The notes under the pieces were generated by a model. The model saw nothing but the letters and a program-made list of their open reading frames with translations, searched no databases and had not been told where the DNA came from. Of a stretch of 64,000 bases of DNA, positions 3,853-56,356 are shown piece after piece. Both the position numbers and the translations under genes were made by a program. Source of the stretch: Candidatus Omnitrophota bacterium (GTDB taxonomy: Bacteria > Omnitrophota > Gorgyraeia > Duberdicusellales > 4484-171); assembly GCA_020352775.1 (NCBI GenBank), contig CP070684.1:660469-724468 (forward strand), written 5' to 3'. How positions within the stretch are numbered: position 1 is the first letter of the stretch; each line of letters starts with the position of its first letter.

Positions 3853-3931
3853 TGGCGGGGTCGATGGGATTTGAACCCACGATCACCTGATCGACAGTCA
3901 GGGGACTTAAACCGGGCTAATCGACGACCCC
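3853..3931 (-). tRNA. tRNA-Asp(GTC), CCA encoded
   Basis: The reverse complement folds as a cloverleaf: acceptor GGGGTCG/CGACCCC, anticodon stem CCTGA/TCAGG with loop CTGTCGA, T-loop GGGTTCAAATCCC, 3' GCCA. Confidence 0.9.
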
Positions 3932-4102
3932 GTTAAAAATTACAAATACTAGCGCACAAATGGCAAGCTCACCAAAGAACTAAAATTATACATAAATATG
4001 ATCTTTTTTCAATCTCTTTCTGGTTTGGGGAATCCCCTCAAAACATTTTAATTTATCAATCAGACGAATTACTACCGACGATATACGATTAAAATAAAGC
4101 CA

Positions 4103-4176
<74 letters not shown>

Positions 4177-4201
4177 AAATGCCTTGTCAACAAAGCAAAG
4201 A

Positions 4202-4286
4202 GTGCCGGGGGCGGGACTTGAACCCGCACGTTCCTTACGGAACAACAGATTTTAAGTCTGTGTTGTCTGCCATTCCAACACCCCGG
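4202..4286 (-). tRNA. tRNA-Leu(TAA), long variable arm
   Basis: Reverse complement is GCCGGGGTGTTGGAATGGCAGACA..., with anticodon loop CTTAAAA, an extended variable arm and T-arm GCGGGTTCAAGTCCCGC. Confidence 0.9.
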
Positions 4287-4319
4287 CTGGATGATAGGCT
4301 GCAGGAATTATTATTTCTT

Positions 4320-4394
4320 TGGAGGCGTGGGCCGGATTTGAACCGGCGCATAGCGATTTTGCAGACCGCTGCCTTACCACTTGGCTACCACGCC
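4320..4394 (-). tRNA. tRNA-Cys(GCA), CCA encoded
   Basis: Reverse complement is GGCGTGGTAGCCAAGTGGTAAGGCAGCGGTCTGCAAAATCGC..., with anticodon loop CTGCAAA and T-arm CCGGTTCAAATCCGG. Confidence 0.9.
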
Positions 4395-50623: not shown

Positions 50624-52630
50624 ATGAGGTTTAGTTTAAATTTTGTAAAAGAACTCTTGCCTTTAGATGTATCCGCTCAAGAGCTTGCTTCACGTCTCAC
50701 TATGGCCGGAATGGAGGTAGAGTTTTTAGCCAGGGCAGGTAAAGATTGGGTGTTTGATGTTGAAGTCACTACCAATCGTTATGATTGGCTTTCCGTAGTG
50801 GGTATTACTAGAGAAATCGCAGCATGTTTGCACAAAAAGGCAAATATTAAATACCCCAAGGTAGTTAAAAGACCAATTCTTAAAGAGCGCAAAGTGATTA
50901 TCGAGGACCTAAAAGATTGCCCTTTATATATTGGTCGTCAAATCGAGGATCTAAAGGTTAAAAATTCACCGGCCTGGCTACGGGAGCGCGTTTTTCATTG
51001 CGGGATTGCCACTATCAATAACGTTGTTGACATCACCAACTATTGCATGCTTAAGTGGGGTAACCCTCTTCATGCTTTTGATGCTGATAAGTTAGAGGGT
51101 AATATTTATATTCGCAGAGCAAAAAAAGGAGAAATTTTTATAGGAATCGATGAAAGAGAACGCAAGCTATGTAGAGAGAATCTGGTAATTGCGGATGATA
51201 AGAAAGTAATAGCTCTGGCAGGAGTGATGGGTGCAAAAAATAGCGAGGTTAGCGAAAACACCAAGAACGTATTTTTAGAGGCGGCTATTTTTTCACCTCT
51301 TACCGTAAGACGTTCCCGCCGCGCTGCGGGAATTGATACGGAGTCATCCTATCGTTTTGAGCGCAAAGTTCATCCTGATTATCTAGAATATGCTTCTGTG
51401 GAGAGCTCTCGTCTTATGCAAGAGTTGGGTGGCGGCAGATTCACCGGTTATGCAGAGGCGGGTAAAAAGCCGATCATAAAAAGTAAAAAACTCACGGTTG
51501 ATTTAAAGCGCTTTGCTGACTATCTGGGAGAGGAGATATCATCAACTCAGATAAAAAAGATACTTACCAATCTTGATTTTGAAATCCTAAAATCTCAGAA
51601 AGATAAAATATCTGTGTTGCCTTCACGTTTTCGTTTTGATTTCGAAGATGAGGTTGATGTATATGAGGAGATTGTGCGTATTTATGGTTATGACAGAATC
51701 GCTCCCTGTATTCCGTTTCTTGTACCTCGAGATGAAAGTTCTTTTTCTGTCAGCGAACCAGGATTTCTGTATCGCTTCAAAAATGAGCTGAGGACATTTA
51801 TGGCATCGTTGGGTTTAAGAGAGATTATTACTTATAGCATTGAGGCTGACCAGGAGCTGGCTAATTTGGGTCAGAAGGATTTCATTTTGTTGCTCAATCC
51901 TCTTCGCGCCCAGGAAAACGCAATGCGCACCAGTCTTCTTTTGGGAATGATAAAAAGCATTCGCAATAATTTAAACCGCAACCAAAAAGATTTACGCTTT
52001 TTTGAAATTGCTAACATTTACTCTCACCAGAAAGAATCCTTTATCGAGAAACCAGTGCTTGCTATTGGGCTTAGTGGCCAAGCCAATACCCTCTTTTGCC
52101 TCAAAGGTTTAGTGGAAGAGATTTTCAAATATCTAAACATCGAAGGTATGGATTTACGCCCAGAGCCTCAAGCGCACCTTAGTAATGCATTAGGAATCTA
52201 TATCAATTCTGAGAAGGCGGGACTTCTGGGTAAGCTCGATGAGAAAACAAAGAAAGATTTTGATTTAAAGCAGGATTTACTTTTTGCCCAGCTCCAGGTG
52301 GGGGTATTGAAAGAGAAAAGAAAAGAAATAGCATACCGGTCTTACAGTCTGTATCCGGCAGTATCACGCGATATCAGTATTGCCCTAAGAAGAGATAAGA
52401 AGTTTGCCAAAATCAGGGCTGCAGTAGAAAGAAAAGCCGGTGAGTTTCTGGTTGATATGCGTATTGTGGATGAATATAGAGGTAAGGACATATCTTCAGA
52501 TTACCATGCCTTTACATTGAGGGTTTTCTATCAATCCAAAGACAGAACTCTTACCTCAAGCGAAGTCGATGCTCTCCATACCGGAATAAGAGAAGATTTA
52601 CACACCCAAGAGGGAATAATTTTACGATAA
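50624..52630 (+). CDS. pheT: phenylalanine--tRNA ligase beta subunit (short form, no OB tRNA-binding domain)
   Basis: MRFSLNFVKELL...MAGMEVE runs directly into VEVTTNRYDWLS. B3_4, B5 and the C-terminal FDX-ACB-like region are present. 668 aa. Confidence 0.9.
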   Translation: MRFSLNFVKELLPLDVSAQELASRLTMAGMEVEFLARAGKDWVFDVEVTTNRYDWLSVVGITREIAACLHKKANIKYPKVVKRPILKERKVIIEDLKDCPLYIGRQIEDLKVKNSPAWLRERVFHCGIATINNVVDITNYCMLKWGNPLHAFDADKLEGNIYIRRAKKGEIFIGIDERERKLCRENLVIADDKKVIALAGVMGAKNSEVSENTKNVFLEAAIFSPLTVRRSRRAAGIDTESSYRFERKVHPDYLEYASVESSRLMQELGGGRFTGYAEAGKKPIIKSKKLTVDLKRFADYLGEEISSTQIKKILTNLDFEILKSQKDKISVLPSRFRFDFEDEVDVYEEIVRIYGYDRIAPCIPFLVPRDESSFSVSEPGFLYRFKNELRTFMASLGLREIITYSIEADQELANLGQKDFILLLNPLRAQENAMRTSLLLGMIKSIRNNLNRNQKDLRFFEIANIYSHQKESFIEKPVLAIGLSGQANTLFCLKGLVEEIFKYLNIEGMDLRPEPQAHLSNALGIYINSEKAGLLGKLDEKTKKDFDLKQDLLFAQLQVGVLKEKRKEIAYRSYSLYPAVSRDISIALRRDKKFAKIRAAVERKAGEFLVDMRIVDEYRGKDISSDYHAFTLRVFYQSKDRTLTSSEVDALHTGIREDLHTQEGIILR

Positions 52631-52878
52631 AGGGCGAAAACGGTTAATTACAAAGGGCGCGGTTCCTTGAAAATCGTCACCACAGATGTTATAATAAAAT
52701 TGAACCCTACCTGTCGCGTGGCAGGTATGAGCGCTACAGCCAACAACATATGTAAGGGGGCTAAATTTCCCCTCGTTGAGGCGAGAAGGATGCAGCGCCC
52801 ACGTGTGTGAGCTACGGACTGTATGCGGCACACCTGCCCGGACTAATGGTGGGGTTTTTCTCTTGTAATTGCCGCCCT
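52631..52878. ncRNA. candidate structured RNA (or MITE-like element) of unknown class
   Basis: Noticeably GC-richer than its flanks. The ends pair: AGGGCG 52631-36 with CGCCCT 52873-78, and AATTACAA 52646-53 with TTGTAATT 52863-70. There are several internal hairpins and no credible ORF. Confidence 0.4.
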
Positions 52879-52901: not shown

Positions 52902-54158
52902 ATGAAAGACTCAGCAAGCGAAAACGTTCCTTTAGCAGTAAGGCTAAGGCCTCATGATTTGGAAGAATTTGTGGGACAAAGTCATGTGCTAGGAGAGGGA
53001 AAGCTCCTGCGCCGGGCCATCACTTCTAAGAGAGTGCCTTCGTTGATTCTGTGGGGTCCTCCGGGATGTGGGAAAACTACCCTGGGATTCATTGTAGCCA
53101 AAGAGCTGGGGGCGGATTTTGAGTATATAAACGCAGCATTTTCTTCAGTAGCTGAAATAAAGAAGATAATTGCCCGGGGCAGGGATCGATTTAGCAAAGA
53201 AGGAAAAAAAGAAGTTCTTTTTATTGATGAAATTCACCGGTTTAATAAGCTGCAGCAAGAGGCTTTAATTCCTGATACAGAACTTGCCAGTATTCATCTG
53301 GTCGGCGCCACAATTTATAACCCCTCCTATTATCTCATTCCTTCACTTATTTCCCGCTCCCTGGTTGCTAAATTTAAGCCCTTAACAAAAGAAGATATTC
53401 TTTTTATTTTAGATAGAACCGTAAAGGATAAAAATAATTGGGGTAGTGTTTTGGTGGAGGCAGATGAGGATGCTTTGGATTATATCGCCACTCTTTCAAG
53501 CGGTGATGCCAGAAAAGCATTAAACGCTTTAGAAATTGGAGTAATAAGCACCACAGCCAGGGATGATAATAAGATTGTGATAGATTTAGGGGTCGCCAGA
53601 GAAAGCATTCAGAAGAATGTTTTTTATGATAAAAAGGACTCTTATCATTACGATACGATTTCGGCATTCATTAAGTCAATTAGGGGCAGTGATGTTGATA
53701 GTGCCCTTTATTGGCTTGCAAAAATGCTTGCGGCAGGAGAAGACCCTCGCTTTATTGCTCGTCGCCTGGTGATTTTGGCCTCTGAAGACGTCGGCAATGC
53801 CAATCCTTTTGCATTAGTGCTTGCCACCAGTTGTTTTAAAGCAGTAGAATTTGTAGGAATGCCAGAAGCGCAGCTTAACCTGGCGCACACCACGATATAT
53901 TTAGCGGCTTCACCAAAGTCAAACGCCTCATATATGGCACTAAAAAGAGCCCAGGAAGACATTGAAGAGGAAGAAACCAACGAAGTCCCCCAACACATAA
54001 AAACACACTCCAAAGATTACAAATACCCCCATAGCTATGGGGGCTATGTAGAGCAGGATTATGGAGCTAAAAAGAGGTATTATTTTCCAAAGGATATAGG
54101 CGAGGAAAGAAGAATCAAGCAATTCTTAGAATACTTGTGTAAAAGCAAAAATCGCTAA
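52902..54158 (+). CDS. rarA: replication-associated recombination protein A (RarA/MgsA)
   Basis: LILWGPPGCGKTT, FIDEIHRFNK, then a MgsA_C region (DPRFIARRLVILASEDVGNA). Confidence 0.9.
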   Translation: MKDSASENVPLAVRLRPHDLEEFVGQSHVLGEGKLLRRAITSKRVPSLILWGPPGCGKTTLGFIVAKELGADFEYINAAFSSVAEIKKIIARGRDRFSKEGKKEVLFIDEIHRFNKLQQEALIPDTELASIHLVGATIYNPSYYLIPSLISRSLVAKFKPLTKEDILFILDRTVKDKNNWGSVLVEADEDALDYIATLSSGDARKALNALEIGVISTTARDDNKIVIDLGVARESIQKNVFYDKKDSYHYDTISAFIKSIRGSDVDSALYWLAKMLAAGEDPRFIARRLVILASEDVGNANPFALVLATSCFKAVEFVGMPEAQLNLAHTTIYLAASPKSNASYMALKRAQEDIEEEETNEVPQHIKTHSKDYKYPHSYGGYVEQDYGAKKRYYFPKDIGEERRIKQFLEYLCKSKNR

Positions 54159-54200: not shown

Positions 54201-55175
54201 ATGATTAGGCAAATTTCTAGTCCAAGATTAAAAGAGCCTATTGTGATTGCGGCCTGGCCCGGGATGGGGGAGGTGGCTTATCGCTCTGCGCTTTTTTTAC
54301 GGGAAGTAATGGGGTTTAAGATGTTTGCTAAGCTGGAAGCAGCGGAATACTTTAAGCCCGCCGCGATTTCAGTAGAAAAAGGAGTTTTAGACATTCCTTC
54401 ACTTCCCGCGGGATTCTTTTATTATGCAAAAGGCAAAAACCATCCGGATATTATTCTTTTTTTAGGAGAAGCCCAGCCTCCATTAGAGCACGCCGAGGAG
54501 CTTTCAAGCGCGATTATAGGCTTTGTGGCCCGTTTTAAAGCCAAGTTTCTTTTTACTTTTGCTGCCAAGCCTGAACCTATCGACCATAAGGTGGATCCTG
54601 CAGTTTGGGTTGCGGCTACACACGAGGAGGTGGCTAAACGTCTTTCCAAGTTTAACTTGAAGGTTTTAAAAGAAGGCCAGATCAGTGGGCTTAACGGGAT
54701 CGTGGTTGGGGTGGCAAAACATAAAGGTCTAAAGGGAGCCTGCCTTTTAGGGGAAATCCCCTTTTATACTGTCCAGATTGAAAACCCCAGAGCCTGCGCC
54801 AACATCTTAAAAGTGGTGAATGATTATCTGAAGCTTAATTTAAACCTTTCACCCTTAGAGCAGCGCGCCAAATTCATCGAGGCTGAGATTGATAAGCTCA
54901 TTAGTTATTTAAAAGGAGAAGCTGTTAAAGAAGAGGGTCCCACTCCGTTAAGCGATGAAGATATTGATAAGATAAAAAAGGACCTTGCGGCCTATACTAA
55001 GCTACCGCAGTCAGCGCGGGAAAAAATAGAAAAGCTTTTTAAGGAAGCGCAGGAAGATATCAGCGCTGCCAGCAAACTAAAGGCGGAACTGGACCGCTGG
55101 AATATCTACAAAGAATACGAAGATAGATTCCTGGATTTATTCAGGAAAAAAAAGAAAAAAGAAGATACGCAGTAG
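54201..55175 (+). CDS. PAC2-family (proteasome-assembly-chaperone-like) protein with C-terminal coiled-coil tail
   Basis: PIVIAAWPGMGEVA and the following ~210 aa resemble PAC2/PF09754. The last ~100 aa are charged and helical. Confidence 0.5.
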   Translation: MIRQISSPRLKEPIVIAAWPGMGEVAYRSALFLREVMGFKMFAKLEAAEYFKPAAISVEKGVLDIPSLPAGFFYYAKGKNHPDIILFLGEAQPPLEHAEELSSAIIGFVARFKAKFLFTFAAKPEPIDHKVDPAVWVAATHEEVAKRLSKFNLKVLKEGQISGLNGIVVGVAKHKGLKGACLLGEIPFYTVQIENPRACANILKVVNDYLKLNLNLSPLEQRAKFIEAEIDKLISYLKGEAVKEEGPTPLSDEDIDKIKKDLAAYTKLPQSAREKIEKLFKEAQEDISAASKLKAELDRWNIYKEYEDRFLDLFRKKKKKEDTQ

Positions 55176-55177
55176 AA

Positions 55178-56356
55178 ATGCATCTTTTTCTTACAGGGCG
55201 GCCCTCCTGTGGGAAAACCACCCTTATTAAATCACTCCTAAATTACATTCCTAATTCCAAAGGATTTTTTACTGAGGAGATACGCCAGGGCAGCGAGCGC
55301 ACGGGGTTTAAGGTTAGCACCCTTGAAGGTAAAGAAGCAGTGTTTGCCCACAAAGATTTTAAATCCCCTTACAAAGTTTCAAAATACGGCGTAGATATAG
55401 AGGTTTTTGATTCTGTGGCAGTAGTCCAATTACAGGAAGCTTTGGAAAGTAAGTGTGAATTCGTCATCATCGATGAACTGGGTAAGATGGAGTTGTTTTC
55501 AGAGAGGTTTAAAGAAGTAGTGCCTAAGCTCTTAGATAAAAAGAAAGTTTTAGGGACAATTTCTGTAATAGAAGATCCTTTTTTAGAAAAAATCAGAAAA
55601 AGAAAAGACGCCTGTATTTTGGATATGAACAAAGAAGGCCTTGAAGAAGTAAAAGAAAAAGCTCACTTAGCGCTAAAGAGCTTAGCAGTCAAAGAGATAC
55701 GCAGGCTTGAAGAAAATGCCAGAAAGATGGGGCTTAGTGAACGCACTTTAATTGAAAATGCTTCTAGTAATCTTTTCAAAGCAGTTGATAATTTAAAATT
55801 AGGAAAAGAAATTTTAGTGGTTGCGGGCAGAGGAAATAACGGTGCCGATGTTTTAAGCTGTGCAAGGAAACTGCTAAGTTCTGGCTATAAAGTTAAAGTT
55901 GCAATTGCGAGTGAAAAAGAGCTAGGGCCAGAGGCGTTATTTCAGAAAGAAACTTTAGAAAAAAGTGGGATTCGCATCCATAATATATATCAGCAAGGTT
56001 TAGGGCAATTATCTTCTTTGGTTAACAACTGCAAGTGGATTCTTGAAGGAATTTTAGGAATTGGCATTAAAGGAGAAGTTTCTCCGTTTCTTTGTGAAGT
56101 AATTGATATTATAAACAAAAGCGCTAAGACGGCTGTGGCTTGTGATATTCCATCAGGACTTTATCCCGATGAAGGGAAACCCTTAGGTAAAGCGATAAAA
56201 GCAGATTACACCGTAACCTTTATTGCTCCCAAAGAGGGATTCTTCTTGGGTGAAGGACCAAATTATTGTGGTAAGATCTTTGTGGCTGATATCGGAGTAT
56301 CACGAGAGAGCCTAGAAAATTTTAATGATGATGTATCAAGAGAGATTTTACCGTAA
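55178..56356 (+). CDS. fusion protein: THEP1-type NTPase + YjeF_N (NAD(P)HX epimerase) domain
   Basis: N-terminal half has the P-loop LTGRPSCGKTTL and Walker B VIIDELGKME. C-terminal half has LIENASSNL...LVVAGRGNNGADVLSCARKL...DIPSGL. Confidence 0.7.
   Translation: MHLFLTGRPSCGKTTLIKSLLNYIPNSKGFFTEEIRQGSERTGFKVSTLEGKEAVFAHKDFKSPYKVSKYGVDIEVFDSVAVVQLQEALESKCEFVIIDELGKMELFSERFKEVVPKLLDKKKVLGTISVIEDPFLEKIRKRKDACILDMNKEGLEEVKEKAHLALKSLAVKEIRRLEENARKMGLSERTLIENASSNLFKAVDNLKLGKEILVVAGRGNNGADVLSCARKLLSSGYKVKVAIASEKELGPEALFQKETLEKSGIRIHNIYQQGLGQLSSLVNNCKWILEGILGIGIKGEVSPFLCEVIDIINKSAKTAVACDIPSGLYPDEGKPLGKAIKADYTVTFIAPKEGFFLGEGPNYCGKIFVADIGVSRESLENFNDDVSREILP

Follow-up and report, generated by a model that had tools for sequence, protein, structure and literature searches.

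The 6S RNA of Escherichia coli is encoded by ssrS, which forms a dicistronic operon with ygfA (fau), the gene for 5-formyltetrahydrofolate cyclo-ligase. 6S RNA has been described as present in nearly all bacteria, and its gene adjoins rarA in lactic acid bacteria (LAB) and, as 6S-1, in Bacillus subtilis (PMC8414754). The 6S candidates of Weissella carry TATAAT at −10, and most species have a 3′ terminator; some genera, Weissella among them, escaped covariance models and were recovered by synteny (PMC8414754). Our literature search found no paper joining 6S RNA and Omnitrophota. Here we analysed a 64-kb stretch (hereafter the window, 64,000 nt in full) of contig CP070684.1 from an uncultured Candidatus Omnitrophota bacterium (assembly GCA_020352775.1). 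We conclude with high confidence that the spacer between pheT and rarA in this window carries ssrS, the 6S RNA gene of the bacterium. An earlier reading of the letters (the original prediction) had noted a structured element there and had matched it to no 6S RNA; the element is nevertheless best read as 6S, an identity that emerged through its homologues only.

The RarA protein of the window has a 100% match in a Candidatus Omnitrophota metagenome-assembled genome, on a 1.27-Mb contig. Relatives were fetched as loci encoding RarA proteins of 68–86% identity (numbered with the prefix L). Their usual gene order is pheS-pheT-spacer-rarA-PAC2, with a spacer of 264–384 nt; L090 and L091 have other genes in place of pheT. 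Every spacer of these relatives holds a conserved core, which starts AACCCUGCC and finishes GGCGGGGUUUUUU, and the flanks beyond it are unrelated between species. Mean column identity between the window RNA and clade members is 79–81%. Searching Joint Genome Institute (JGI) metagenomes with a degenerate 29-nt core pattern gave 18 further copies, most of them between pheT and rarA; three of the 21 pattern matches (L096, L104 and L106) lacked a model hit and were treated as chance. The alignment used for structure (A3) contains 22 distinct full-length clade sequences; counts in it are sequences rather than independent events, five rows being near-identical.

Several clade members are recognized by the Rfam 6S model itself. 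The gathering score of RF00013 is 46.4 bits, and it was passed by L082 (54.6 bits), L094 (47.7 bits) and L090 (47.4 bits). The model aligns to L082 from end to end (model positions 1–187), assigning a closing stem, an internal loop, a bubble-adjacent helix, the central bubble and a terminal arm, and in this alignment the signature GGGAGCC...GGUGCCCACCUG agrees with the 6S family consensus. Because L082 aligns readily to the window copy, the window element can be placed in the same family. The window RNA shares the 6S signature blocks GGGAGCY...GGYRCCCACNUG and AGCCAACA, the latter conserved across phyla.

The relationship extends beyond the clade. Searched directly with the spacer by blastn and nhmmer, 80 rarA loci of GTDB species gave nothing, and a covariance model alone bridged the gap. 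This model (R1), built from eight sequences of the window's clade only (alignment A1), was run over the 80 loci and hit just upstream of rarA in Omnitrophota (L003, 69 bits; L002, 56 bits; L005, 39 bits), in metagenome-assembled genomes (MAGs) of Victivallales (L041), Kiritimatiellae (L076) and Planctomycetia (L009), in a MAG labelled Bacillota (L038), and in Ca. Makaraimicrobium (L006). R1 scores 25–69 bits on Rfam-positive 6S RNAs of other lineages, and Rfam gives exactly the coordinates of the R1 hits as RF00013 (6S/SsrS), with 57–102 bits. L001, whose RarA is the closest in GTDB (67% identity), differs in its upstream surroundings and was not hit by R1.

A number of points weigh against the assignment. 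Rfam searches with 501 nt and 171 nt of the window copy yielded no RF00013 match at gathering level or at E ≤ 10, and searches of the window returned only tRNAs elsewhere and chance-level snoRNA and miRNA matches (sR12, 15.7 bits against a threshold of 38). The true RF00013 bit score of the window copy went unreported in these searches, whose speed filters may have dropped the sequence. Four clade members (L081, L087, L088 and L092) likewise gave no RF00013 report, and the E-values of R1 are rough, with a short calibration. At about 156 nt, the RNA is at the lower end of 6S length. The 64 kb belong to a contig of at least 1.27 Mb, and a second, more canonical 6S RNA elsewhere may make the window copy a paralogue. 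Lastly, we infer expression, RNA polymerase binding and product RNA (pRNA) synthesis of the window RNA from the 6S mechanism, and its near-consensus extended −10 promoter is only suggestive of stationary-phase abundance.

Since L082, L094 and L090 pass and L081, L087, L088 and L092 give nothing, the window's clade straddles the detection limit of the Rfam 6S model, with three of the eight scanned clade loci passing. A different reading, to which we attach very little probability, is that the element is an undescribed structured RNA class resembling 6S in shape only, for example an Ms1-like binder of core RNA polymerase. Ms1 is about twice as long as the window RNA and has no visible sequence relation to it, whereas the window RNA is homologous to bona fide 6S RNAs. 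Ms1, from Actinobacteria, is described as rod-like, related to 6S in shape and interacting with RNA polymerase (PMC9130861). A separate class would account for the missing Rfam hit of the window copy, its shortness and a conserved alternative 5′ hairpin outside the Rfam 6S consensus (see below), but similarity runs continuously from the window through Rfam-positive clade members to the 6S RNAs of other phyla at the same locus, and the two signature blocks are present. The original prediction had held that a confident Rfam hit would make the element a known class; the window copy gave no hit and several of its homologues passed RF00013, so by that reasoning the 6S assignment makes it a known class rather than a novel one. 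Signal recognition particle (SRP) RNA, a CsrB-like GGA decoy and a small open reading frame (ORF) with a Shine-Dalgarno-like sequence and start (AAGGAUG...) were set aside, as GGA and AUG are not conserved. L087, L088 and L092 read AAGAUG in place of AAGGAUG, and the reading frame and stop codon of the small ORF differ between homologues.

The spacer is 271 nt long and lies between pheT (50624–52630, + strand; Pfam domains B3_4, B5, tRNA_synthFbeta and FDX-ACB) and rarA (52902–54158, + strand; Pfam domains MgsA_C and AAA). As the original prediction had noted, it is GC-rich (48%, and 55% in the RNA core, against 40% in the whole window). The prediction had seen no plausible ORF in it; mechanical ORFs of 47–69 aa do overlap the spacer, and the substitutions and indels among homologues nonetheless follow an RNA-type rather than a protein-type pattern. 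Compared with dinucleotide shuffles, the fold of the 271 nt reaches −94.9 kcal/mol on the + strand (z = −3.8) and −88.7 kcal/mol on the − strand (z = −3.35); the core (52700–52862, + strand) folds at −73.7 kcal/mol (z = −5.1), equalled by none of 200 shuffles. Because these folds beat the shuffles, the spacer holds genuine, non-random structure, and the prediction of a stable structured RNA holds, with covariation in 22 homologues. Its extent changes. In place of an element of about 250 nt with complementary ends, the unit is an RNA of about 156 nt on the + strand, at approximately 52703–52858, and the supposed ends are flanking DNA. The features of the locus, in window coordinates, are as follows.

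52631–52653: 5′ arms of the outer helices, AGGGCG (52631–36) and AATTACAA (52646–53); upstream of the promoter, not in the RNA.
52667–52672, + strand: −35 box TTGAAA of the 6S RNA promoter; promoter score 11/12, 17-nt spacer.
52687–52695, + strand: extended −10 box TGTTATAAT; with 52667–52672, a near-consensus sigma-70 promoter.
52703–52858, + strand: 6S RNA (ssrS), about 156 nt, assigned from the R1 score, Rfam-positive homologues and covariation.
52704–52711, + strand: 5′ strand of the closing stem, ACCCUACC, pairing with GGUGGGGU at 52848–52855; helix 1, 98.9% paired.
52710–52725, + strand: alternative local 5′ hairpin, CCUGUC (52710–15) with GGCAGG (52720–25); 97.7% paired, CCUGUY/RRCAGG.
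52713–52726, + strand: 5′ strands of the inner closing-arm helices, 52713–52719 with 52838–52843 and 52723–52726 with 52832–52835.
52732–52741, + strand: 5′ strand of the bubble helix on the closing-stem side, CGC (52732–34) with GCG (52825–27) and CAGCC (52737–41) with GGACUG (52816–21).
52742–52755, + strand: 5′ strand of the central bubble, AACAACAUAUGUAA; unpaired in the 22-sequence consensus, in agreement with the Rfam alignment of L082.
52756–52800, + strand: terminal (apical) arm, GGGGGCU (52756–62) with AGCGCCC (52794–800) and UCC (52768–70) with GGA (52788–90); helices 6–8.
52773–52776 with 52781–52784, + strand: apical hairpin UCGU/GCGA, loop 52777–80; three compensatory pairs.
52801–52815, + strand: 3′ strand of the central bubble, ACGUGUGUGAGCUAC; highly conserved CCACNUGURUGAG, matching the Rfam 6S consensus CCCACCUG.
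52848–52859, + strand: 3′ strand of the closing stem (52848–52855) running into the U-tract (T run 52855–52859); resembles an intrinsic terminator and marks the 3′ end.
52863–52878: 3′ arms of the outer helices, TTGTAATT (52863–70) and CGCCCT (52873–78); downstream of the U-tract, outside the conserved RNA.

The length of about 156 nt, an own promoter, a conserved U-tract and a single copy in the 64 kb (by blastn and covariance model) fit a 6S gene (about 150–200 nt). All 22 clade homologues have a sigma-70 promoter with TTGAAA or TTGAAT and a spacer of exactly 17 nt; the −10 box reads TATAAT, TATACT or TATATT (the last in L082 and L095) and is nearly always preceded by TG. Allowing the usual 7 nt or so downstream of the −10 box, transcription would start at about 52702–52703. 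Between 9 nt (in the window) and 40 nt (in L092) separate the −10 box from the conserved RNA 5′ end, and leaders of varying length, the longer ones rich in A and G, were noted upstream of the RNA in L082, L087, L090, L092 and L099. This variation suggests 5′ processing of a precursor in the long-leader relatives, with little or none in the window. At the 3′ end, GGGTTTTT at the junction of closing stem and U-tract is conserved across the 22 sequences.

The RNA is encoded on the + strand, because the promoter, the U-tract, the R1 scores and the frequent G-U pairs all agree. R1 gives the window RNA 167 bits on the + strand and 25.7 bits on the − strand, and many G-U pairs of the rod become A-C mismatches if read from the other strand. 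As the rod is nearly symmetric, its reverse complement (window 52697–52861, − strand, and the − strands of L081 and L092) still reaches 26–29 bits under the clade model; the strand of such near-symmetric RNAs has to be called from G-U pairs and promoter evidence.

RNAalifold on the 22 sequences gave a rod of 40 pairs in eight helices. Standard pairs form in 97.8% of the rod cells (93.4 ± 0.4 in shuffles) and 16 pairs show compensatory changes (6.7 ± 1.5 in shuffles); none of 500 shuffles matched the rod on any of five measures, and sliding the 3′ partners by 1–3 columns lowered pairing to 31–44%. The comparison of homologous spacers that the original prediction had proposed thus came out in favour of a structured RNA; with the Rfam and copy-number checks, also proposed there, it decided the case. 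Compensatory changes are present in every helix. In the closing stem, pair 12/161 is A-U in the window and G-C in others; helices 2 and 3 of the inner closing arm are 97.4% and 98.9% paired, with compensatory changes in four pairs. Further along the rod, 10 sequences have U-A and 9 have C-G at pair 37/137, L092 carries A-U instead of G-C at pair 44/129, and pair 68/104 takes three forms (C-G, U-A and U-G, in 9, 8 and 5 sequences respectively).

Between helix 5 and helix 6 lies a central bubble of about 15 + 15 unpaired nucleotides. Its 3′ strand is almost invariant and its distal 5′ strand varies freely. The intra-bubble helix AUGUA/UGUGU of the single-sequence minimum-free-energy fold was rejected (73.6% paired across the clade, with 261 of 500 shuffles as good); the central bubble is open.

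All seven complementary segment pairs listed in the original prediction are present where it had placed them, and their standing differs. GGGG/CCCC and GTGTG/CACAC are each paired in only 69% of cases among the 22 homologues and are not conserved. GCGCT/AGCGC is kept, at 97% paired, with covariation from few lineages, yet it conflicts with the better-supported rod helices 4 and 6. GGCAGGT/ACCTGCC had been described as a competing pairing; it does occur, but as part of the conserved rod (helix 3 and its neighbours). The core of TACCTG/CAGGTA, in turn, is the conserved alternative 5′ hairpin, 97.7% paired.

The remaining two pairs are the outer ones (AGGGCG/CGCCCT and AATTACAA/TTGTAATT), which had been read as a nested closing helix. 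The 5′ arms are not in the transcript because they lie upstream of the −35 box. In the window, the flank duplex reaches −19.1 kcal/mol against −10.9 ± 2.9 in shuffles, and four of 500 shuffles are as good; none of the 16 relatives tested shows the complementarity, and in the closest of them, L081, 133 of 500 shuffles do as well. The flanks thus bracket the whole 6S gene with its promoter in this genome and in none of those relatives. They could reflect chance or a lineage-specific stem in read-through pheST transcripts, such as a processing stem. The original prediction had also offered a miniature inverted-repeat transposable element (MITE) or another kind of mobile repeat, with terminal inverted repeats at 52631–53 and 52863–78. 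The flank complementarity, nominally above chance, speaks for such an element, but the copy-number check found one copy in the 64 kb, the core occupies one syntenic position in dozens of genomes and keeps it between species and phyla, the 16 relatives lack the inverted repeats, no target-site duplication is evident, and covariation maintains the RNA pairing. In short, the marks of a MITE (dispersed copies, terminal inverted repeats, target-site duplications) did not come together at this locus, and we regard this origin as exceedingly improbable.

Gene anatomy, homology and the rod-and-bubble architecture are established here by computation, and the steps of the proposed mechanism are drawn from established 6S biology (PMC8414754; PMC8876501). 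The rod with its bubble would imitate an open promoter and fill the active-site cleft of the RNA polymerase holoenzyme carrying the housekeeping sigma factor. Holding the holoenzyme in this way would damp sigma-70-dependent transcription at nutrient exhaustion. On outgrowth or nutrient upshift, the polymerase would copy the 5′ bubble strand into a short pRNA; the pRNA:6S hybrid would displace the 3′ strand, the RNA would refold and the polymerase would be freed. Work by Wassarman and Saecker (2006) reportedly bears on this mechanism as well.

The 5′ strand of helices 4 and 5 (52732–52741) doubles as the predicted pRNA template. An invariant CC (52740–41) lies 3–4 nt from the bubble edge and A52745 stands beside the predicted start; taken together, they place GG at pRNA positions 4/5 and the putative start at C52744, with 5′-GUUGGCUGUAGCGCU as the predicted product. 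Viewed as an antisense small RNA, the pRNA would begin 5′-GUUGGCUG. GG at positions 4/5 with an A next to the start is found in E. coli, A. aeolicus and R. sphaeroides (PMC8414754). The template pattern (GG at 4/5 or 5/6 and an A adjacent to the start) is thus present in the window RNA, as a sequence signature only.

The segment RACAGGU (52719–26) has two partners: the 3′ strand in the rod, or the 5′ CCUGUY in the alternative hairpin, which is mutually exclusive with rod helices 2–3. Pair 18/24 of the hairpin occurs as C-G (11 sequences), U-A (7) and U-G (3), and pair 17/25 shows one U-A to C-G change. Because column 24, unpaired in the rod, covaries, the alignment argues that the hairpin would form at some stage. 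Any role for it is putative. With the pRNA site blocked, folding suggested a further small hairpin, GACUG-N4-CAGUC, on the 3′ strand once released; its pairing in the clade is only 72%, and it was not relied on. Speculatively, the refolded state could contain the alternative 5′ hairpin, the weak GACUG-N4-CAGUC hairpin, or both. It is conceivable, although we consider it unlikely, that the RNA is a compact Omnitrophota 6S with a built-in switch, in which RACAGGU changes between the 3′ strand and its CCUGUY partner, and that the clade has a different release step or a coupling between 6S and RarA. If the switch and the recurrent same-strand 6S-rarA order do have this meaning, the refolding and release step of the 6S cycle would be implemented differently, and 6S transcription would be mechanistically coupled to RarA, a replication-fork rescue factor.

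We then consider the neighbourhood of rarA. Among 29 GTDB rarA loci scanned with Rfam, 11 have a 6S RNA within 3 kb of rarA. Its usual place is directly before rarA, in the same orientation, as seen in Omnitrophota, Planctomycetia, Kiritimatiellae, Victivallales and Ca. Makaraimicrobium, and also in L038 and in L022 (an unclassified 'uncultured bacterium' MAG). Departures are L012 (a Thermoanaerobacterales MAG), where it lies about 2 kb upstream on the same strand, and L017 (Fictibacillus), where it lies downstream on the opposite strand. Rfam found no 6S RNA at the rarA locus of L011 (a Verrucomicrobiae MAG), where an Acido-Lenti-1 RNA (RF01687; 48.4 bits, threshold 37) occupies 2127–2173, some 830 nt before rarA. 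Eleven of 29 loci across these lineages mean that the 6S-rarA linkage reaches well beyond Firmicutes.

Such proximity could also be read as regulation in cis. The start codon of rarA lies 43 nt 3′ of the U-tract, and no rarA promoter was detected between 52860 and 52901. Because no promoter was detected in that interval, read-through co-transcription of 6S and rarA is plausible, and rarA might be expressed in part from the 6S promoter. A cis-acting rarA leader (riboswitch or attenuator), in which promoter, RNA and terminator-like stem with U-tract form an expression platform, would suit the position of the RNA, directly upstream on the same strand in the window and most relatives and in several phyla, the lack of a separate rarA promoter, and the two mutually exclusive conserved pairings near the 5′ end. 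It sits poorly with the rest of the evidence. Homologous RNAs pass the Rfam 6S threshold; the RNA of L090 and L091 is parted from rarA by a terminator-like palindrome and a 150-aa ORF; the 6S RNAs of L012 and L017 are placed as described above; and only 2 of 20 further rarA loci have the RNA, the other 18 lacking it. The U-tract follows a closing stem that joins the ends of the RNA and is not part of a switchable terminator/antiterminator pair. Rfam cis-regulatory families gave no match to the window RNA at gathering level or at E ≤ 10. Having found neither an obligate 5′ UTR (untranslated region) position nor a switchable platform, we judge a rarA leader highly improbable and retain the 6S assignment.

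Other features of the gene neighbourhood vary among relatives. In L090 and L091 (1806–2478), a second element resembling a terminator, the palindrome GCUGUCCUUCGGGCAGC bordered by runs of U and A, comes after the 6S U-tract; the 150-aa ORF, which has no Pfam hit, lies between this element and rarA, and upstream of the RNA, CoA_binding and Peptidase_M42 genes replace pheT. Downstream (window 54201–56356), rarA is followed by a PAC2-family protein gene and then by a gene for a fused NTPase_1 (THEP1-like) and YjeF_N protein. L082 and L083 have the same order, and L081 has the PAC2 gene in the same place after rarA and then a cut gene of unknown family; L087, L088, L089, L090, L092 and L094 either lack the NTPase_1 domain or have no YjeF_N gene at all. 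Eight tRNA genes lie in the window, four of them within about 540 nt on the − strand (3856–4394).

Set beside 6S/SsrS as known from E. coli 6S and B. subtilis 6S-1 (RF00013), the window RNA has the same rod of closing arm, open bubble and terminal arm, the same blocks at the bubble borders (GGGAGCY and GGYRCCCACNUG), AGCC at the template edge, GG at positions 4/5 of the predicted pRNA, a strong sigma-70 promoter of its own and a single copy. It differs in falling below Rfam reporting, in its length (about 156 nt against a consensus of 187 positions), in a closing stem that abuts the U-tract directly and in the clade-specific conserved alternative 5′ hairpin. The LAB and B. subtilis 6S genes resemble it in adjoining rarA, in having a promoter and a 3′ terminator, and in that some genera are missed by covariance models. 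The orientation is different: the window 6S gene precedes rarA on the same strand, with 43 nt up to the start codon, whereas in LAB rarA is upstream of 6S and in B. subtilis it has the opposite orientation. So is the phylum, Omnitrophota (related to the Planctomycetes-Verrucomicrobia-Chlamydiae, PVC, group) here and Firmicutes in PMC8414754. The arrangement also recalls ssrS-ygfA of E. coli, in which a protein gene comes shortly after 6S on the same strand; its counterpart in the window is rarA, and possible co-transcription is a matter of prediction.

The window RNA thus adds a new, Rfam-borderline member from a poorly studied phylum to a known family, with a known synteny in a different orientation. 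It is an ordinary housekeeping RNA rather than a new kind of RNA, unsurprising to a specialist, and its value is mainly practical, for annotation. Annotation based on the Rfam model likely omits ssrS from such Omnitrophota genomes, and the 22-sequence alignment together with synteny to rarA (and pheT) offers a simple route to its recovery. That the 6S-rarA linkage is also seen in Omnitrophota, Planctomycetota, Kiritimatiellia, Victivallales and others lends mild support to a functional link between the two genes.

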